From assembly GCA_965207445.1 (NCBI GenBank), contig CBDBLX010000002.1, forward strand, positions 928,001-992,000: DNA of 64,000 bases. The letters are read 5' to 3'. Within the stretch, counting starts at the first letter, position 1. Every line of letters begins with the position of its first letter. Position numbers and translations under genes: made by a program. The notes under the pieces are model-generated. The model was not told the origin of the DNA. It saw only the letters and a list, made by a program, of their open reading frames with translations, and searched no databases. The stretch is from Nitrosopumilus sp. (GTDB lineage Archaea > Thermoproteota > Nitrososphaeria > Nitrososphaerales > Nitrosopumilaceae). Below are positions 14,193-61,942 of the stretch, one piece after another.

Positions 14193-15880
14193 TAGCGACG
14201 AGCATAAGTTTCTGTACAGTGAATTTTTGTGATTTCGTGCCTGAAATAATCACATGTGGCAAAGTCCAATTGTGAAAACGTTACAGGAAATCACAATATG
14301 ACTATTTTTATGTTCAAAATTATGGCAGTGTGTTGCAATATGCACAATCATGCACCAAAGAATGGAATACAATTCAAGATTGAGATGGATGATTACGATG
14401 TGTGCTTACGTGTAGCGATAACCATGTTGAGAGAAGATGTACCTGAGCAATAATGCAATTTCATATTGCTAGTTTGTCTTTTTCTTTTTTGTTTTTGTTG
14501 TTGTTGCTATCGGGACGGTTATGTTACATTTCTCTGCTTCAGAACTCAGTTCACCTTCCAATCTGACGATTGGACGCATTACCCCTTTGGGCGGTTTTCG
14601 TTTCCAGAATTTGGTAAAATTATAATCAAACATGTATTCGTTGATAAATTTGAATACTGCTTCTTTGTGTGCATCAACAGTTGCATATCTTATAGAATTG
14701 TTGATTGATAATTTGAGTACGCCCCACAGTTCCTCAACAGGATTTAGGTACGGATGCCCTACTGGATACCACACTAACATAATGTCCGGGTGGTTTTTGA
14801 AATATTTCATTGCATCATTTGAGGTGTGATATGTTGCTCTGTCAAGAACAAGCACCATCTTTCCAATTTTTTGATACATACGATCAACATGCTCCAAAAA
14901 TGAGGCAGTGTTTGCAGTGCTACAGGAATTATAGAATAATTCTCCAGTTGATGTCATTGAACACAGCATGCTGAATCTATGATGATTCCCACTCCAAAAC
15001 GAGTATATGCGTACTCCCACTTTTGACCAAAACTTACGTGACCTCTCAGAATCTCGAATGTGTGATTCATCCATTGTCACTATTGTGTATCCTTTTTTGC
15101 TAAACTTTTCTAGTGTTTTAAAGAGTCGATATCTCCAAACTCGAACAGTTGTCATCTTGGCACGATTGATCTCAATTGGTTCTGTCTTTTTCTTTGAGCA
15201 TTTCCACTGTCTCATGTATCTTCGAACTTGTGTTATACTTAGCCGTGTACCTGACAACTCAAATATCTTATCAGATATTTCAATAGATTCAAAACCTTTG
15301 CCATCACACCATTGTCTTACTTTATCAAGTATGGCTCTGTCAACTTTTGTCGGACATCCTGATCTAGGTTTGTCTGATAATGCATCTCGAATACCTTTTG
15401 GTGTCTTTCTTGCAGCCTTTAATCTGTGCCACCACATTGAAACTGTTCTTCTATCGCAGCTGTGTTTTCGTCCAGTATCACTAAATGTACCCAAACTAAG
15501 AAACAAAATCAACATGCACAATCTGCGTACGACACGACCGTCTTTTTCGGTTTTTCTTATGTTCGACAACTGCTCAAGTATGTCCATACCCTAGTAAATA
15601 ATTTGATCATTTAAAACTTTCCTAAAATTAGGCACGCCTAAGCGTGCCGCAAAATTTTTTCGGTAACGCAGCATATTTGTCAATTACAAACTAGCAAAGT
15701 ATAAAGTACTAATTTCTTGGGCATAGTACACACACTGCGCTTATTACAATGCACACCTGAAATATATCTATTCATATTAAAAACAGATGTAACGTTTTCA
15801 AAATACAATATTTTTGCATATGATCTTTTCAGGCATAAAATCGTGTAAAATTGGTGTACATGGACTTATGCTCGTCGCTA
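14193..15880 (-). mobile_element. IS630-family element, copy 2 (1688 bp)
   Basis: Same TIRs as copy 1; TA duplication at 14191-92 and 15881-82. Confidence 0.95.
14469..15587 (-). CDS. IS630-family transposase
   Basis: Differs from copy 1 by only a few N-terminal residues. Confidence 0.95.
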   Translation of the reverse strand: MDILEQLSNIRKTEKDGRVVRRLCMLILFLSLGTFSDTGRKHSCDRRTVSMWWHRLKAARKTPKGIRDALSDKPRSGCPTKVDRAILDKVRQWCDGKGFESIEISDKIFELSGTRLSITQVRRYMRQWKCSKKKTEPIEINRAKMTTVRVWRYRLFKTLEKFSKKGYTIVTMDESHIRDSERSRKFWSKVGVRIYSFWSGNHHRFSMLCSMTSTGELFYNSCSTANTASFLEHVDRMYQKIGKMVLVLDRATYHTSNDAMKYFKNHPDIMLVWYPVGHPYLNPVEELWGVLKLSINNSIRYATVDAHKEAVFKFINEYMFDYNFTKFWKRKPPKGVMRPIVRLEGELSSEAEKCNITVPIATTTKTKKKKTN

Positions 15881-53142: not shown

Positions 53143-53969
53143 AGCGTGTTGCATAACTCGTAAATTTATACTCCTCTGGGGTCGTGGCCATGTGGTCTGA
53201 GCCGCGCAACCTACGTTACACGATTCGAAGCCACTCAAATGCTCTGTAAACTGGACAGGAAGACTGTCTGCCTCAAGCTACGATGCCAGCGGGTGTGTCA
53301 AGTCACGCCTACAACAAGCCATATGCGGGCCGTGCTTCCAAGCCTACAAAGTGTACGCGCAAAACATGGCGTGGTAGATGCCTTGGTATTTTGTGAGTAC
53401 ATATACATATCTCCATATTTGTATTTAACCTATACAATGTTCTATTATACAGCAGTGTATATGTGCAAATAGGTTAAATACGCATAATGTGAGATTCCAT
53501 CGATCAAGGAAATGATGAGATCAAAACATCAGCAATGTAGTATTGTAAAGGATAAATTTAACACTGCTTGTGCCCCGCGCACGCAAACCAGAGGTGAGGT
53601 TGTATCATGAACAAAAGTGCAGAGAAGGTAGACAAAACCACCACGCAGGTAGGCAAAAGTGCAGAGAAGGTAGACAAAACCACCAAACAGCGAAAACCAG
53701 ACACGCGATCATCATACGAATACAATGACAAGTATGTCAAACGTGCATACTATCTGTTTGACATGATGGTAAACCTAATTGAAAACTATAATGAACCGGA
53801 GGAGCTAGCTGCCATGAACCGCAACAAGCGAGGACGTCCATTCGTGTGCACACCCCGACTAATAGCAATTGTATCGCGCGTACGTGACGTGTTACAACTA
53901 CCATACAGATCAGGTGAGGGTATGTGTGAGGCCATCAGCCTCAAAATATTCCGGCGGATTCAATTATAA
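53143..53969 (+). mobile_element. IS5-family (IS903-like) element, 3'-truncated; transposase fragment at 53607-53969
   Basis: YND..VKR, EL..MN..KRGRPF and LPYR..EG are typical of archaeal IS5 N-termini. 42-bp duplication at the start. Candidate left end TGTTGCATAA at about 53147 (boundary uncertain). Confidence 0.7.
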
Positions 53970-53996: not shown

Positions 53997-54548
53997 TTAA
54001 TTGTTGTACCAATGGCGCCAAGATGGACGCAACCACCACATTCGAGGTTTTGCGTTTATTATACGAGAATGTTTGGATTCAAGTGCATTTACTTTCAACT
54101 CCACTTCATTTTGGAAGTCACATAACTTATCGTTCATGAGACTATCCGATCCGATCGATCCTTTAACACCTCCATTGCTTAACTTTGACAATTCAATTTT
54201 ATATGGGTGCGGCCCAAATATTCCATAAAACGTATCACGTTTTATCATTTCATGATATTGTTTATGAATAGATTTTGATAATAAATTACCATATCTGTCA
54301 AAATAATCTTGCAAATATAGAAAATCCCTCTGTGTCATTTGATGTGTGTATTCACTATTTTTGAATCTTTCACCTTGGACTTCATATTTTTGTAACAATT
54401 GAAGCAACAGTTTAGACACATTAAGCTCATTTTGTATATATTTTCCATCTTGCTCTATGATCGTATTACGATGAATATATAATTGAGTAATTACTGTTGA
54501 AATCACTATTGCACCCGCTCCTATGATTGGTGCTAACGATTCAATCAT
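53997..54548 (-). CDS. Hypothetical protein with an N-terminal TM helix, last gene of the RM operon
   Basis: Overlaps the mod stop by 8 bp; lower GC than mod/res. Confidence 0.7.
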   Translation of the reverse strand: MIESLAPIIGAGAIVISTVITQLYIHRNTIIEQDGKYIQNELNVSKLLLQLLQKYEVQGERFKNSEYTHQMTQRDFLYLQDYFDRYGNLLSKSIHKQYHEMIKRDTFYGIFGPHPYKIELSKLSNGGVKGSIGSDSLMNDKLCDFQNEVELKVNALESKHSRIINAKPRMWWLRPSWRHWYNN

Positions 54549-57075
54549 TATTTTGAACCTCGTGTATTGTGGTCATTACTTCGCCATATTCAGTAATTAT
54601 GCGGACCGCGATACGGCCACTTTTGGGAGTGTCAAACGGTAGGGATTCTAAGGATGTCATAGCATCCCAATGTTCATTGTTAATCTTTGTGGCGAGTTTA
54701 TTTTTGAGATTTTTTATCTGCTTATCGTTATCCTTGTCAGGAAGGTGTATCCTTCTTGCAAAGAATGACTGTCCATCATAGTTTGTATCTAACATCCAAC
54801 AATCTATGTTGTCGGCGCGTCCTGTATTGACCATGCCGGTTTCAGGGTTAAATGTGTCATATCCTATTACCTTTACAACCACTTTGTTCTTTCCGTGCTT
54901 TTTTACGTCAATATCTGGCTCTCCAAGCATTACAAATGACGAATCATCTTTTTTGTGCATTAATTCTTTGAGTGCCAAATCATTGTTTATCTTGATCTTG
55001 TGGATCTGTATCTTGCCTCGTTTTTCTGTCCGTTTGTCATATGCAACTGCTTCAAACTCAAATGCAAGAACAAACAACTTTTCAATACTGGGATATTGTA
55101 CTGTTTCCTCTGCTGCATGATTTATGAGATTCACTCCAGCAGTATTATCGTCTGGCAGTAGTACAACAGCTACTTTTTCTCCAGTCTCTCGAAGTCTGGC
55201 CTCATGTGTCAGTAATGTGCCATTCGACCATGCATTCGCATCCTCAAGATGCCATCGTTTTTTTGTGCCTGGTATTATGATGCCTGCAACGCTGATTGCT
55301 TCTAGTATTGTAGGGAATACATCGCCACTTTGGTTATCATATTCGTGTGTGCTAATGTATTTGTGTGGTGAGGCAGATTCAACAGTAAACGGTGAACTAA
55401 TCCTCTTTGTACCGCGTTTTTTGATAGGTTGATTTACTAGATGTATAACGTCGGGCTTATTGTCATATGCAAGCGTAGCGGCAGAAATATGTGGTACGCG
55501 CTCGTAGACAAACCCACTACTTGGATCGTATTGATGATCATGGCTATCTTGTACTGTAGGGGTGTTTGTTCCTGCAAGCCTTGATTCTTCTAGTCGCCCT
55601 TCGTAACTATCTTTTGTAAGACACCATTCGTTTATTGCCGTTATGATTCTTTGTCTACACAAGGATATTTGTACTGGGTTGATATCGATTGTAATCCAAC
55701 GTCTACCCAATTTTTCAGACACAAATGCTGTCGTACCTGACCCACATGTAGGATCTAATACCAAATCCCCTGGATCTGTTGCCATGAGTATGCATCTTTC
55801 TATAACTGATTCGGCTGTTTCAACTATGAAATGTTTGTCTGATGGTGCCATTTGTGTGTGCCAAACATTATTAATTTTTCTTCCTGGTACTTCATTTTCG
55901 TATTTTTTCCAATGGAGTGTATGTTTGCCGGGAGCGGCAAGTCGATTCAACATACCTAGTTTTTTTAACCCATCATGAGATACACGCCATTGAGTACCTT
56001 TTGGGCATTTATATTGAGTATTTTTCCAAATAAATGGATCAGAGTATCCAGTTGAAGATTCTGATTGTGATGTCAATGGCATTAATCTGAATAAACGTGC
56101 TTTTTGTGGTAATAATTCTGGATTATTTTTTTCATCTTGAGTTAATGTACGTATTTTTTTATCAGGTAGTTCAACCATTGCAGCAAATGACATATGTTCT
56201 ATTTTTTCTTTTTTTGTTAGCGGTGTATATAATTGATGGAATTTTAATTCATTTTTGTTTTTTGCATACCAGAGTATCCATGTAGCTACATCTGGAAGTA
56301 ATTTAGTAGGTGATGAGCCTGTTGTTGCAAATGGAATAGTTACAATTTTGTTCTCAACCCCAAATATCTCGTCTAGTATAATTGCCATACGGTGTACATG
56401 TGCGCTCCCTATCTGCAGAAAAAAACTCCCTGACTCTCTCAATAACATCCTAGAGTATGTGGCAATACGGTATATGCTGTCCATGTAGGAATGTATGCCA
56501 TCTTTGTACGTGTCGCGGAATGCCCTCTTACTCTTACTGTCCTGAGGCGCTCCACCTTTGGTTTTCTTGGTGCTGACTTGGAACATAGTCTCAAAGTTGA
56601 TCCCATACGGTGGATCAAAATATATCATCTGCACCTCACCCTTCATCCCTTCTCTGTGCAGAAAGGATGCCATGACTTTGGATGTGTCACCATGTATAAT
56701 CCTGTTGGACCAGTTTCCTCTGTGCTTGTACCAATTGTATTTTGCGTCTTCTGGATAACCGTTGAACGAGAAGAGATGAGTTTGTTCTCCGGGCGTCTGG
56801 TCTATGAGATGATTGATGAACCATGAAGGATCTACCTTTTCTTGTATGTACAATGGATGTGCTTCACGTGCCACATATTTTTTGTCCGTGTTACGTCGCC
56901 ATGACAGGCGGGGCATGCCTTCGTCCGATCTTATGTTTGGATAGAATACAGCAGATTCGCGCTCTTCGTCTGCCATGTACTGGTCGTCTGATTCGGTGGG
57001 TATCTTTGTCCGTCTGGATTTTGTATGATGGTAACTGCGGGGGGGGGGGGCGGTTTCTTTTTTGGTGGTGGTCAT
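54541..57075 (-). CDS. mod: Type III-like RM DNA methyltransferase (Mod; beta-class N6/N4 MTase)
   Basis: DPPY precedes LDPTCGSGTT; C-terminal W.LDTNYDG.SF..R and IAVRI; ATGA overlap with the res stop. Confidence 0.9.
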   Translation of the reverse strand: MTTTKKETAPPPRSYHHTKSRRTKIPTESDDQYMADEERESAVFYPNIRSDEGMPRLSWRRNTDKKYVAREAHPLYIQEKVDPSWFINHLIDQTPGEQTHLFSFNGYPEDAKYNWYKHRGNWSNRIIHGDTSKVMASFLHREGMKGEVQMIYFDPPYGINFETMFQVSTKKTKGGAPQDSKSKRAFRDTYKDGIHSYMDSIYRIATYSRMLLRESGSFFLQIGSAHVHRMAIILDEIFGVENKIVTIPFATTGSSPTKLLPDVATWILWYAKNKNELKFHQLYTPLTKKEKIEHMSFAAMVELPDKKIRTLTQDEKNNPELLPQKARLFRLMPLTSQSESSTGYSDPFIWKNTQYKCPKGTQWRVSHDGLKKLGMLNRLAAPGKHTLHWKKYENEVPGRKINNVWHTQMAPSDKHFIVETAESVIERCILMATDPGDLVLDPTCGSGTTAFVSEKLGRRWITIDINPVQISLCRQRIITAINEWCLTKDSYEGRLEESRLAGTNTPTVQDSHDHQYDPSSGFVYERVPHISAATLAYDNKPDVIHLVNQPIKKRGTKRISSPFTVESASPHKYISTHEYDNQSGDVFPTILEAISVAGIIIPGTKKRWHLEDANAWSNGTLLTHEARLRETGEKVAVVLLPDDNTAGVNLINHAAEETVQYPSIEKLFVLAFEFEAVAYDKRTEKRGKIQIHKIKINNDLALKELMHKKDDSSFVMLGEPDIDVKKHGKNKVVVKVIGYDTFNPETGMVNTGRADNIDCWMLDTNYDGQSFFARRIHLPDKDNDKQIKNLKNKLATKINNEHWDAMTSLESLPFDTPKSGRIAVRIITEYGEVMTTIHEVQNND
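57039..57050 (-). repeat. C12 homopolymer (G12 on the + strand) in codons 9-13 of mod
   Basis: Directly visible; in frame, encoding APPPR. Confidence 0.95.
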
Positions 57076-60008
57076 ATCATACACGCCTCACTTATCTGTC
57101 TCTTTGCAGATTTAACATTCTCAATCCAGACACTTCTCCATTCACCATACTCGCCGTCATTATGTGCAGACACTGAAGGGCACCACCAGTTCTCCATGTA
57201 ATACCTTTTCGCCTGTTCCTCTGCCTCTTTCTTTTTCATTCCTTTGAACTCAATAACAAGGTGTACAGGCTTGTCATTTTTCTTCGTCTTTACACGCGCA
57301 ACAAAGTCCGGTTCTGTATCTCTCCACGTATTCTGTGATTTATCAAACCAGTGTATCTTAAAATCCAGTCTAAAGTTTCGTGTCCATGCTTCGACGCTGG
57401 GGTGGGTATCAAGTATCTTGGCAATTGATGCTTCCTCGCTGGAATGGCATGCGGCTCTGTTCAGCTCGGACTTTTTCAAGAATGTATTCTGGGTATTCAC
57501 TGCATCCATATCATCATACAGCGTGGAATTCTCACTGTTACCTATTTTCTTGTATGTGTGCTGCAATGTAGTCCTGAACCTGACTCCCTCTGTTGTCAAC
57601 AACCTGTCTCCAGATTGGTACTTGTCTGCAAATATGGGTCGGATGTTCACGACTTCATCATTATGGTCGCACGCCTCTGCAATCCTTTGCGGCACGTGCG
57701 GATCTGCCATGACTCCGGCGTGGTCATTGCATGTTATATTTGGATGATCAAGCCATTGTTTGACAATCCTACAAGAGTCGACAAATGAAATGTTTCTGCC
57801 TGTCATGATGTGCTGTCCGACATCGTGATCACGATCAGAATCATGATTTAGTAGTTCTGCTACTTGACGTGCTGTATTCCATATTGAAGTCTGTACTCGG
57901 CGCTCCCGTACTACTGTCATGCCGCTGCCAGCTGGGCCTTGGACTTCCGTTACTGTGGGTTCTGACTTTATTACATACGTCATGACTTTGTCTGGATTAA
58001 GCACAAAGCGTCGCCGCTTTCTCGGGTTTTGATACCCGATTACATTTGGAAATGATATGCGGAATTTTTCATTACCTGTCACTGAAAACACCATGTATGG
58101 TTGCGCGGGTGGTTGCAGCTTGACATCTCCTCCACGTGCAAATGTATATGGTACTCCGAACACGTTGGCGTACTCGGGCTTTTGTTTAGCAAATCCTACA
58201 AATGAAGTCCGTCTCAGGGCCCTGCCAGTAACCTGTTCACACAGCAATTGACTGCCAAATCTCCTGTATCCAAACACGTGGGTTACATTCTTGGCGTCCC
58301 ACCCTTCAGTCAGCATACCTACGGATATCACGCACCGTATGTGTCTGGCAGCCCCGCTTTGCCCTACTGATGTAAAGAGGCTTCGTATCTGTTCTTGTTT
58401 TTTGTCAAGTGATCCATCAAGTCCAAACAACGTGGCTTGTTCATCTACAATCTTCTTCTCAGAACCTGAAGTGGGGGCCTTTTCAAACAAGCGAGAGTGG
58501 ACAAGAAGAGTAGGAGGGAGATTCAGAGGATTACCGTCTTGGTCATAGTTTGAGAACATACTCAGGTGCCCGCGAGCTCCACGTTTGCCATCTGAATGGC
58601 GGCTTCCTGCGATCCATCTGTAGATGGCAGTTGCATTTTTAATGTTGTTTGCAACTATGATAAAGATCGGAATTATGCCGATCTCATCGTATGCAGGATT
58701 TACTTTATCATGATAGTGCTTGTACAACTGCTCAAGCGGCTCTTGCACCTGTACGGACAGGTTGGGGCCGAGCGGCTTGCCAGAATTATATTCATATATG
58801 TTTCTGTATTTTGGGTGATAACTGTCTACATCATCTTTGACCGGAACCCTGGGTATCTTCACAAGTCCCGACTCTATCGCGTCAAGCAGGGAAAAGTCCG
58901 AGACGGTCCATGGAAATACTACGGATTCCACATTTTTTGGCTTTGAAATCCACATCGGAGTGGCAGAAAAGTCATGGACATGCACCAGCCTGTCCTGCCC
59001 CTTTAGCAGCTTCAGAGCGTTGAACCAAAGAGCGGCTGCTTTCTGATATTCTGCATATTCTACATCATACTGTCTTTCCTCCTGCGGTTTGTAGCAGTGA
59101 TGTGCCTCGTCGTTAATTACGACGACCTTTGATTTTGGGTCGTGTTCGCGCAGGACACGGTTTATCATATCCGTCTCACTCTCCTTGGAGTTCTCGACAT
59201 TTGCTCTACCAAGCATCCTCTTTTCTCTTGTGCCCAGCGACTTGCCGTCCATGGTTGCAGTTCGTCTCTGAAAGACATGAAAATTCACGACCGTAACCTG
59301 GGCCCTACCAAGCACGCGGTGAAATTCCCTTGGTGTTATCGCATCCCATAACTCTGTTCCCTTTTTTGGATCCAGCACCTCAAGTCTCTTTCTGACTGTC
59401 AGGTTGGGGGCTATGACAAGAAAGTTTGTTATGCCGCTGTCATCACGGTGGATGTCATTTACAAGCATCCATAGCATTGTCATGGCCATCACATTGGTCT
59501 TGCCGGTTCCGGTCGCCATCTTAAATGCGGTTCTATATACGCCGTCATTATACGCGTCGTTGATTGACTTGAGGTTACGCGTCACTCTCTTGTGAAATGC
59601 CGGATCGTGCACCTGCCCTGCCTCAAAGAGCCAGATCATGGTTTCTACTGCTTCCATCTGGCACCAAAACGGGCGCATCCCGGCGCCCGGATCGCTTCTA
59701 TTCCAAAACTCTAAGAGTCTTCTGGTTCTGTATGTTGTTCCTTTCCAACCATTTTGTCTCCAGTGTACTAGAGCATCACGGAGTCCATTGATTGTCATGT
59801 GGGGTTCTATGCTAGTTGAATCCACTATTGTTTTATTGCCATCTTCATCAGGCATGCCTGATGATGCTTCACTTGGTCTGCGACCACTACATACCTCATT
59901 GGTAGATCGTCCCCTTGGATCTGTTACATAATATGTGGCAGGTTCCTCATATGGTTTATGTAGTATGGGAGATTCATTGAACATGCGCTTGGTATCACTT
60001 CCTTGCAT
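57072..60008 (-). CDS. res: Type III-like restriction helicase-nuclease (Res; BPTD_3080-like)
   Basis: MATGTGKT, DEAHH, SATP, LTEGWD, Q..GRALRR, and a PD..E.KG nuclease motif. Confidence 0.92.
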   Translation of the reverse strand: MQGSDTKRMFNESPILHKPYEEPATYYVTDPRGRSTNEVCSGRRPSEASSGMPDEDGNKTIVDSTSIEPHMTINGLRDALVHWRQNGWKGTTYRTRRLLEFWNRSDPGAGMRPFWCQMEAVETMIWLFEAGQVHDPAFHKRVTRNLKSINDAYNDGVYRTAFKMATGTGKTNVMAMTMLWMLVNDIHRDDSGITNFLVIAPNLTVRKRLEVLDPKKGTELWDAITPREFHRVLGRAQVTVVNFHVFQRRTATMDGKSLGTREKRMLGRANVENSKESETDMINRVLREHDPKSKVVVINDEAHHCYKPQEERQYDVEYAEYQKAAALWFNALKLLKGQDRLVHVHDFSATPMWISKPKNVESVVFPWTVSDFSLLDAIESGLVKIPRVPVKDDVDSYHPKYRNIYEYNSGKPLGPNLSVQVQEPLEQLYKHYHDKVNPAYDEIGIIPIFIIVANNIKNATAIYRWIAGSRHSDGKRGARGHLSMFSNYDQDGNPLNLPPTLLVHSRLFEKAPTSGSEKKIVDEQATLFGLDGSLDKKQEQIRSLFTSVGQSGAARHIRCVISVGMLTEGWDAKNVTHVFGYRRFGSQLLCEQVTGRALRRTSFVGFAKQKPEYANVFGVPYTFARGGDVKLQPPAQPYMVFSVTGNEKFRISFPNVIGYQNPRKRRRFVLNPDKVMTYVIKSEPTVTEVQGPAGSGMTVVRERRVQTSIWNTARQVAELLNHDSDRDHDVGQHIMTGRNISFVDSCRIVKQWLDHPNITCNDHAGVMADPHVPQRIAEACDHNDEVVNIRPIFADKYQSGDRLLTTEGVRFRTTLQHTYKKIGNSENSTLYDDMDAVNTQNTFLKKSELNRAACHSSEEASIAKILDTHPSVEAWTRNFRLDFKIHWFDKSQNTWRDTEPDFVARVKTKKNDKPVHLVIEFKGMKKKEAEEQAKRYYMENWWCPSVSAHNDGEYGEWRSVWIENVKSAKRQISEACMI

Positions 60009-60270: not shown

Positions 60271-61942
60271 GAGGTTGGTGCGTAATTGACATTAGGCCTG
60301 CCTGTGACCCTTCTGTGAGCTTGGTTTATTGCACATTCAATCTACAAAAGACTGAAATCTATCTATAGTGCGTTTCGTTTTTGAATATACGTGTGTGTTT
60401 TAGCAGACAGATTATAGAACATGAAACGTGCAAGTGTAATAGCAGTCACTATCATTCGTATGATGGAATTTTTTGCCCTTTTTCATGAGCGCAGATAAAT
60501 CTGTTTAGGACGTTGATATTCCATGCAATTGATAATATTTTACCAAACCGCTTTTGGTTTTTGGCCAGGCGCATACGACAGTGTAGCCTGTGATTCTTTG
60601 TCTCTTCTGCTCCAAATATTGCCTCGATAAGTGCGCGTTGTTTGTATGCATCTTGGTCAAAGATCTCTGCTGCTTTTTTTCTGCTTGGTTTGCCACGGTT
60701 TGTATGACCTGCGCCATCTGTGTGATTGCGCTGCTTTATGTTCGGTTTCATGTTTGCATTGAATATTGTCTCGCAATTTTGATCCGAGTCGTATCCCTTG
60801 TCTCCGTTGAATAAGCGTTCTTCAATCTGTGTATAGTTTTTTACGAGAAAGCTGACCATATATGGAAGCATTGACGTGTCACTCACATTGCTTGGAGTTG
60901 TGTATGATGCAAGTATGATCTGATGTCCTGTTATCGCAGTAATGTGATATTTTAGGTACGTCTTGATGCGTGTCGGCTCAAAATCTTGTAGTACATGATT
61001 AGGTCTTTCTTGTTTTTCGTACCTGTCAGTCTCTACCCCACTACTGTCTATCCCAATTGGAGCTGTAGGTTCTTGTTTTACGTCTTGTTTACCGCTCTCA
61101 AAATCCTCGGATCCGTGCGTAAGTATGGTCTCTTTACCTTTTATCGGTACCGGATCTGTCCCCGATTTTTTAAGTTCAGTTAGACACATGTTGGCAGTAT
61201 GTGCCAAAATAGAATCAAGCCAGTCGAGATCAATTGTTTGCATATGTTTTGTTACCCAACTATAATCAGGCTTCGGCTCGTCAACCCATTCATCATGCAT
61301 ATGTACAAGATCATTTATCACGTCACGAAAAGGAATATTTTTTGCAACTTTTAAAAGACACAAAAAATCCATCTTGTCACGCGAGTGTACAGGCTTGCAT
61401 CCTCTATTTGTCTTCTTTTCCTTGCACGGATGTGGATTTTTCCGTATCGCCGACAGCAAGGTCTTGCGCATAAAATCCGGCTCAGATTTGCGTGCCTGTT
61501 CGTAATACAGCCAATAACCTTCGCGTCGCTTGTGTTGCTCTGTCACTGTACGGTCTGCCTCCTTGATTTGTTCTTATTTGAAACCCACACACTAAATTTA
61601 CACAAACAACAAGCAGACGTCACATTCATCACAAACAATGCATTGTAATGGACATCATTCTGTGTAGCATAGTATGTTGTGGCAACCCACCATACGTCGT
61701 CGTCCCACCACACTTCACAAACGATACGTTGATAACATTGGCTAGTCAACGTTGTTTAGCATCCCCTTTGGTGACATTACAATTATTCATTTGGGATGCC
61801 CCTATAAGTAACTTTTGGTATGCGCGCATATACTTTTATATATGAGCTTATTAAATATATGTACATAAAACTCTGGCGATATTTGCAGATGGCTTTGCAA
61901 GTACGATGCAAGTGGCGATTTGATGAATTACGCACCAACCAC
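60271..61942 (-). mobile_element. IS5/IS4-type element, intact copy (1672 bp)
   Basis: 17-bp TIR GAGGTTGGTGCGTAATT / AATTACGCACCAACCAC; 9-bp TSD GTTTGCTGG (60262-70, 61943-51). Confidence 0.95.
60452..61546 (-). CDS. IS5-like DDE transposase
   Basis: IDSSG, GDKGYD and Y.QR..IE..F motifs. Confidence 0.93.
   Translation of the reverse strand: MTEQHKRREGYWLYYEQARKSEPDFMRKTLLSAIRKNPHPCKEKKTNRGCKPVHSRDKMDFLCLLKVAKNIPFRDVINDLVHMHDEWVDEPKPDYSWVTKHMQTIDLDWLDSILAHTANMCLTELKKSGTDPVPIKGKETILTHGSEDFESGKQDVKQEPTAPIGIDSSGVETDRYEKQERPNHVLQDFEPTRIKTYLKYHITAITGHQIILASYTTPSNVSDTSMLPYMVSFLVKNYTQIEERLFNGDKGYDSDQNCETIFNANMKPNIKQRNHTDGAGHTNRGKPSRKKAAEIFDQDAYKQRALIEAIFGAEETKNHRLHCRMRLAKNQKRFGKILSIAWNINVLNRFICAHEKGQKIPSYE

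Follow-up and report, generated by a model that had tools for sequence, protein, structure and literature searches.

A poly-C tract as a candidate on/off switch in a type III-like methyltransferase gene of a Nitrosopumilus archaeon

A 64,000-nucleotide stretch of the Nitrosopumilus sp. assembly GCA_965207445.1 (contig CBDBLX010000002.1, positions 928,001 to 992,000), hereafter the window, encodes a predicted type III-like restriction-modification (R-M) system whose methyltransferase gene, mod, carries a run of 12 cytosines close to its start. The run reads as G12 on the plus strand at window positions 57039-57050 and as C12 on the mod coding strand (minus), and from the ATG at 57075 the frame through it stays open for 844 amino acids, to 54541. 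A preliminary description of this DNA had reported an in-frame 12-nt poly-C in mod codons 9-13 and had called it the longest G/C homopolymer noticed in the window. Coordinates and open frame bear out the first point, and the second holds as well, with no other G/C run of more than 6 nt in the 64 kb. The tract is a mononucleotide run of at least 9 nt that lies within the open reading frame (ORF) and 3' of its start; G9 is the threshold used for calling bacterial mod genes phase-variable (PMC5909438). As computed from the sequence, C9, C12 or C15 yields full-length Mod, C11 or C14 a product of 47 or 48 residues, and C10 or C13 a product of 60 or 61 residues.

The predicted Mod protein has the organization of a type III methyltransferase, in which the DPPY motif precedes the S-adenosylmethionine (SAM) binding motif and the recognition domain lies in between. 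The recognition region (residues 276-400) is 60-63% identical to those of the four closest homologues, which come from different species, versus 85-90% for the catalytic flanks. A structure model with a mean predicted local distance difference test (pLDDT) score of 78.6 matches best the fold of EcoP15I Mod (4zcf, E=8e-17); 6k0w and 7dsu were also matched. The adjacent res gene is intact and encodes the helicase and nuclease domains expected of a type III Res. We rejected a decayed locus, as both frames are open and the motifs intact.

An alignment of 64 full-length Mod homologues, picked out of 120 listed, shows that Y15, R22, P26 and P46 are invariant, and translation would therefore start 5' of the C12 run. 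We thus place the mod start codon upstream of the tract. The preliminary description had done likewise, with the ATG at 57075 overlapping the res stop as ATGA, and had pointed to a family-like N-terminal block after the run; both readings agree with the invariant residues, since Y15, R22 and P26 lie between the run and Met34. A start at the downstream methionine of MADEER was rejected because the conserved block precedes it. At the tract site the closest homologues have two to four prolines, and the low-confidence N-terminal tail of the structure model (pLDDT 43, residues 1-10) holds the run.

The tract might only tune the level of Mod if translation re-initiated at Met54 or Met34 and gave a shorter active protein. 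In-frame ATGs do stand at codons 34 and 54, the latter 15 nt past the stop of the -1 frame, and several Mod homologues in databases are annotated from these downstream methionines. However, such proteins would lose the invariant Y15, R22, P26 and P46; the short N-terminus of one database protein (P0011) is a gene-caller artefact of a C11 frameshift in the relative L056, and in four of the out-of-frame relatives the 120 nt that follow the tract contain no in-frame start. We consider re-initiation highly improbable.

The closest orthologues, which come from genomes of the same family (Nitrosopumilaceae), carry the tract at the same site. It is C9 and in frame in L055 (83% identity), and C11 and out of frame in L056 (82%), with res frames and mod bodies open in both. 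A tract whose length differs among relatives and that occurs in both in-frame and out-of-frame states is the pattern expected of a phase-variable gene, and C12, C9 and C11 together display it. The preliminary description had reasoned that an invariant C12 across related genomes and deep reads would speak against switching; the tract is invariant neither among these relatives nor across the contig sets of one sample (see below). Because independent assemblies of relatives also have the run, the run itself is not a sequencing artefact.

The tract recurs more widely in the family. In a draw of 400 Nitrosopumilaceae genomes, 38 mod matches were listed at E<=1e-60 in 28 genomes, this one included, and 13 of these 38 have a G/C run of at least 9 nt. 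Three 5' tracts are in frame (this locus, L060 and L111) and eight are out of frame (L061, L062, L071, L072, L074, L105, L110 and, near codon 90, L106). The L076 tract is part of a short leader that directly adjoins the likely mod start, and L079 has an internal, in-frame tract. Seven of the eight out-of-frame mod copies are otherwise open, and res is open in all. Among 37 assessable copies (L065, whose 5' end runs off its contig, was dropped for this count), 10 have a run of at least 11 nt near the start, versus 0.14 expected at random and 0.55 if all runs lay at gene starts; fragmented assemblies undercount such runs, and kin do not count as independent observations, which makes the P values too favourable. 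In a midpoint-rooted FastTree tree of 69 rows, the 5' and near-5' tracts (some of C, others of G) occupy about nine branches whose neighbours lack a tract, a number read from the tree without a monophyly test. One genome (G116) has two runs of at least 11 nt, one of which is the mod tract. A draw of 100 relatives contained no close orthologue, and a metagenome scan gave four loci, all distant (32-38%), with no 5' tract in the three starts inspected.

Two relatives have a second G/C run near codon 500, both in frame (C10 at L056:5217 and G22 at L079:1677). Both are situated in one variable loop that separates the methylase core from the C-terminal part, and a slip there would leave a core-only Mod and possibly a third state. 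At L122:5223 (G438), a G11 is found in a short leader frame whose stop codon directly adjoins the TTG from which mod probably starts; this arrangement points to a coupling-type switch and not to a frameshift.

Readings of the tract length also differ within one sample. Four sequencing runs contain the mod locus, all from a single sample that is possibly the source of this assembly, and they are available as contigs only. The tract reads 12, 12, 13 and 11 in the four contig sets. Matching contigs have no other letter or gap difference over 1,301 bases, and the contig totals of 6492, 6492, 6493 and 6491 (at depths of 6.4, 16, 7.5 and 10.5) differ by the tract alone, despite 19 A/T runs of 6-7 nt in the span. 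In a plurality simulation, the probability that at least two of four contigs differ was 0.0006, 0.011 and 0.083 at 20%, 30% and 40% deviating reads. Deviating reads must therefore make up about 40% or more, from either true mixing or heavy homopolymer error. As evidence of slippage, these same-sample differences are suggestive rather than decisive.

Alternatively, the tract could be fixed at 12, with the 11 and 13 arising from sequencing or assembly errors and the species differences from slow divergence. Several observations weigh against a switch at this point: the depth is 6-16, the platform is unrecorded, and homopolymer read error can mimic a spread of lengths. As a control we used a 20-kb stretch with several strains, in four runs. 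An A11 there read A10 in one of the four, in a low-depth contig with 10 other differences, and an intergenic C14 also varied, reading 12 in two runs. The G15 that splits a Type ISP gene in the same stretch (L088:9481-9495, G000:C2:1302281-1302295) read 14, which is in frame, in two of the four. Our literature search found no usable published homopolymer error rate. A fixed tract, however, would require a per-read error of about 40% or more that left the many A/T runs in the span untouched. Near-identical paralogues within this assembly also have G11, G14 and G19 between matching flanks, and bacterial G9 tracts vary at approximately 1e-3 to 1e-2 (PMC5909438). We judge a fixed tract very unlikely. 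Homopolymer error, which the preliminary description had listed as a possible refutation, is set aside for the run itself, whereas the 11 and 13 of this sample could still be read errors. Contigs of the same sample omit L088:4109-5505 and 14206-15109, consistent with strains without these insertions.

The C12 tract belongs to a large set of G/C runs. This genome has 39 of at least 9 nt, and 34 of at least 11 nt versus 0.04 expected from the extrapolated decay of 3-7-nt runs, on which ground a chance origin of C12 was rejected. A/T runs of at least 11 nt are depleted (6 seen versus 49 extrapolated). G/C runs of at least 11 nt are absent from 277 of 401 family genomes and exceed 100 in some; three genomes of one genus (G151, G170 and G187) have 170-178 each, about five times the number here.

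Two ORF families that read as signal-peptide proteins have approximately ten of the runs at their 5' ends. The first comprises six ORFs of 870-980 amino acids without Pfam match (L031-L036), which have G11-G19 near the start, some in frame and some not, preceding what reads as a signal peptide. The second comprises four ORFs of 650-690 amino acids (L031, L038, L039 and L040) with C9-C15 at a like position. Further runs are located at or in two glycosyltransferase genes (G16 near the start at L037:2955, and C10 inside the ORF in L099, G000:C2:2270707), upstream of a HEPN protein and of giant fibronectin/FG-GAP proteins. Besides the Type ISP gene split at G15, another is split at (GCCA)20 (L043, G000:C2:1754544-1754623). 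This repeat interrupts the specificity domain, and by our count of the frames a repeat of 18 or 21 units would restore the reading frame.

A profile search of this genome, which is 96% complete, found no MutS_I or MutL match, and NucS matched below the cut-off only. Without MutS and MutL, slips stay unrepaired. The available text of one study (PMC4134008) describes slippage in vitro by the archaeal polymerases PolB and PolD, on a template with a hairpin and direct repeats.

Such a background could also produce the tracts without any benefit from switching. Under neutral, tolerated hypermutability, G/C runs would expand wherever they are not purged, namely in the unstructured N-terminal tails of dispensable genes and in intergenic DNA of a lineage without MutS/MutL, and out-of-frame copies would be early gene loss. 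Consistent with this, many runs are intergenic or at insertion-sequence ends, so such runs also arise where no gene switches. The prolines that the mod tract encodes belong to a tail that is variable and modelled with low confidence, and the runs near codon 500 lie in another variable loop. R-M genes are only modestly enriched for slippery repeats (3/29 versus 28/1,511 ORF proxies, Fisher P=0.019, with three fragmentary matches and C1 duplicates excluded from the 29). The out-of-frame L110 (L110/L120) has a second lesion, one internal stop. Also counting against a switch, 25 of the 38 listed mod matches have no run of at least 9 nt (one of them with its 5' end off the contig), and two other mod paralogues of this genome are without a tract. 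On the other hand, the many family genomes free of long runs argue against a family-wide default, and A/T runs are depleted rather than expanded. One tract site has been kept across orthologues that are 17-18% diverged, nearly all out-of-frame copies are otherwise intact, and the 5' placement exceeds expectation even when every run is assumed to lie at a gene start. We therefore regard neutral hypermutability as unlikely, though it is the most credible of the alternatives.

Some of the intergenic runs have features of their own. C20 and C24 with matching flanks precede IS66 transposase pieces (G000:C1:61249 and C2:43262), and a similar short motif stands upstream of a few other intergenic C runs. 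Part of C2 appears to be represented a second time, as another haplotype, by contig C1. A G20 at G000:C2:612633-612652 lies between a 385-amino-acid ORF and an AAA-family gene and has no evident frameshift role.

A further point against concerns Res, which scores 685.4 bits against NF046055 (BPTD_3080 family), short of the curated cut-off of 800 for this nearest family, and its PADLOC REase_III matches are weak (E 2.7e-6). Res thus appears to be a close relative of the BPTD_3080 family and not a member, and the literature search turned up no paper naming that family.

We conclude, with a probability of roughly 0.78, that C12 is a slipped-strand ON/OFF switch on a predicted type III-like R-M system. 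The proposal of the preliminary description, that a type III-like mod is switched by slippage near its 5' end, is supported by a tract that varies among relatives and contig sets and by a start upstream of it. One C gained or lost at replication would give a 61- or 47-residue product, and a further slip would restore Mod. In ON cells, Mod would methylate the cell's own sites, and Mod and Res together would cut foreign DNA that lacks the mark. OFF cells would contain Res alone, still made since its gene lies upstream; they would lose the mark and admit foreign DNA. They would survive because a type III Res needs Mod to find and cut DNA; the available text of a review gives the rule that Res cuts only when complexed with Mod (PMC10609329). 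The earlier suggestion that the OFF state is not self-lethal looks right, as the out-of-frame relatives retain open res frames of 903-996 amino acids. The population would be a mixture of both states and could hedge its bets against phages and plasmids. C12 would then be one of a genome-wide set of switching loci on restriction, glycosyltransferase and surface-protein genes. What the sequences show is where the run lies, its frame, the predicted truncated products, the differences in length between assemblies and relatives and the recurrence within the family; slippage in living cells, activity of the enzyme, dependence of Res on Mod and selection for switching are inferred.

It is possible, though unlikely, that mod is a phasevarion that regulates other genes, and the phasevarion-like switch of the preliminary description stays a hypothesis. 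Because res is intact and the gene distribution patchy, the data point more to a switchable phage/plasmid defence. The organism is probably host-associated, because its R-M genes, its transposases and its large, repeat-containing surface proteins are numerous; R-M and transposase enrichment has been reported for sponge symbionts in the available text of PMC7848895. A far-reaching scenario, which we put forward tentatively and think unlikely as a whole, is that a Nitrosopumilaceae group independently evolved a bacterial-style phase-variation repertoire. In it, mod would be an archaeal phasevarion whose C-tract slips flip the methylome and the expression of other genes, and dozens of surface proteins would switch separately, creating heritable cell-to-cell diversity in a probably host-associated organism.

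The features of the locus are listed in Table 1. The order res-mod is found here and in L055, L056 and L114, whereas the two mod paralogues of this genome and all other loci checked have the order mod-res. For a 183-amino-acid ORF that overlaps the mod stop, searches of Pfam, PADLOC and NCBIfam gave no family, and its only matches are Atlas clusters without a name. In L055 other genes stand at this place, and we therefore leave the ORF out of the system. Should it be coupled to mod, the two could switch together. Transposase genes flank the mod/res locus on both sides.

Table 1. Features of the mod/res locus, in window positions.
Feature	Position	Strand	Basis or remark
mod, 844-aa beta-class DNA methyltransferase, type III-like R-M	54541..57075	-	PADLOC MTase_III E=1.3e-137; Pfam N6_N4_Mtase
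C12 tract	57039..57050	-	mod coding sequence nt 26-37, codons 9-13; in frame (ON) in this assembly
res stop/mod start overlap (ATGA)	57072..57075	-	likely translational coupling; same junction in L055, L056
Conserved N-terminal block, residues 15-27	56995..57033	-	3' of tract, 5' of Met34; Y15, R22, P26 invariant
Met34 of mod	56974-56976	-	
Stop after -1 slip (47-residue product)	56931..56933	-	frame computation
Internal Met54	56914..56916	-	possible re-initiation site just past -1 stop (inferred)
Stop after +1 slip (61-residue product)	56891..56893	-	frame computation
Catalytic DPPY motif, residues 154-157	56605..56616	-	sequence and alignment; conserved
Likely target-recognition domain, residues 276-400	55876..56250	-	more variable than flanks
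SAM-binding motif I, residues 441-447 (D441-G447)	55735..55755	-	after DPPY, beta-class order; conserved
res, 978 aa, open frame	57072..60008	-	helicase motifs and C-terminal nuclease-type motif read from sequence; Pfam ResIII
183-aa ORF overlapping mod stop	53997..54548	-	family not recognised
DDE transposase adjoining locus	60452..61546	-	Pfam
Transposase remnant	53607-53969		Pfam

In bacteria, and above all in host-adapted ones, methyltransferases whose phase variation is driven by repeats are documented. We found no paper on a repeat-switched methyltransferase in an archaeon in a search that covered few subscription papers. The string "archae" is absent from the main text of the type III and type I REBASE surveys (PMC5909438, PMC7383803). 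In the available text of two reviews on archaeal R-M (PMC10609329, PMC11033074), phase variation comes up for bacteria or in the reference list only, and that of two further papers contains no archaeal case (PMC13076061, PMC3711429). A 2025 review, in its accessible part, describes archaeal phase-variable loci and their distributions as future work (PMC11868660). Weighing against novelty, a preprint mentions in its accessible part earlier descriptions of contingency loci in archaea (10.1101/2025.10.21.683753), and the available phase-variable lists of the type III survey, which give enzyme codes only, contain M.CsyAORFQP, a code for which no organism could be established.

With this locus, its in-frame and out-of-frame orthologues and repeated gains in one archaeal family, archaeal phase variation becomes a directly testable question, and long reads can link tract length and methylation on one molecule, culture-free. 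If the switch is real, bet-hedging of this kind would be a strategy convergent across domains. Many R-M and surface genes annotated as frameshifted would then be switched off rather than dead, which would affect annotation and defence-system counts.

Among known systems, EcoP15I Mod/Res (4zcf) is the top fold match and second sequence match, and it shares the beta-class motif order and the helicase-nuclease Res. Identity to EcoP15I is 14-16%, however, and the Mod described here is about 200 amino acids longer, with an extra C-terminal part, and is encoded after res. Res resembles the BPTD_3080-family endonuclease (NF046055), matching positions 2-969 of 970 (E=1.3e-205). Poly-G tracts of Campylobacter and Helicobacter are located in surface, glycan and R-M genes. 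As in these repertoires, in the available text of PMC6321876, tens of long G/C runs occur per genome, but here in an ammonia-oxidising archaeon known from its sequence. The closest parallel in tract architecture is modH of Helicobacter pylori, for which we draw on the available text of PMC3230613. There, too, a G/C tract of 9-15 nt lies within a type III mod ORF and is in or out of frame by strain, and DPPY and SAM-binding motifs flank a variable recognition domain. Unlike modH, whose tract is poly-G, the coding strand of the archaeal gene carries cytosines, at codons 9-13. Unlike in some H. pylori modH strains, res is intact in every tract-bearing copy checked, and here it precedes mod. The recognition domains of close relatives are about 60% identical here, whereas those of earlier mod alleles share less than 30%. 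The modH5 allele changes the expression of six genes, whereas this mod is known from sequence alone. Finally, as in the type III REBASE survey (PMC5909438), the run of at least 9 nt lies within the ORF, and tracts appear to have been gained repeatedly and independently in different mod lineages.

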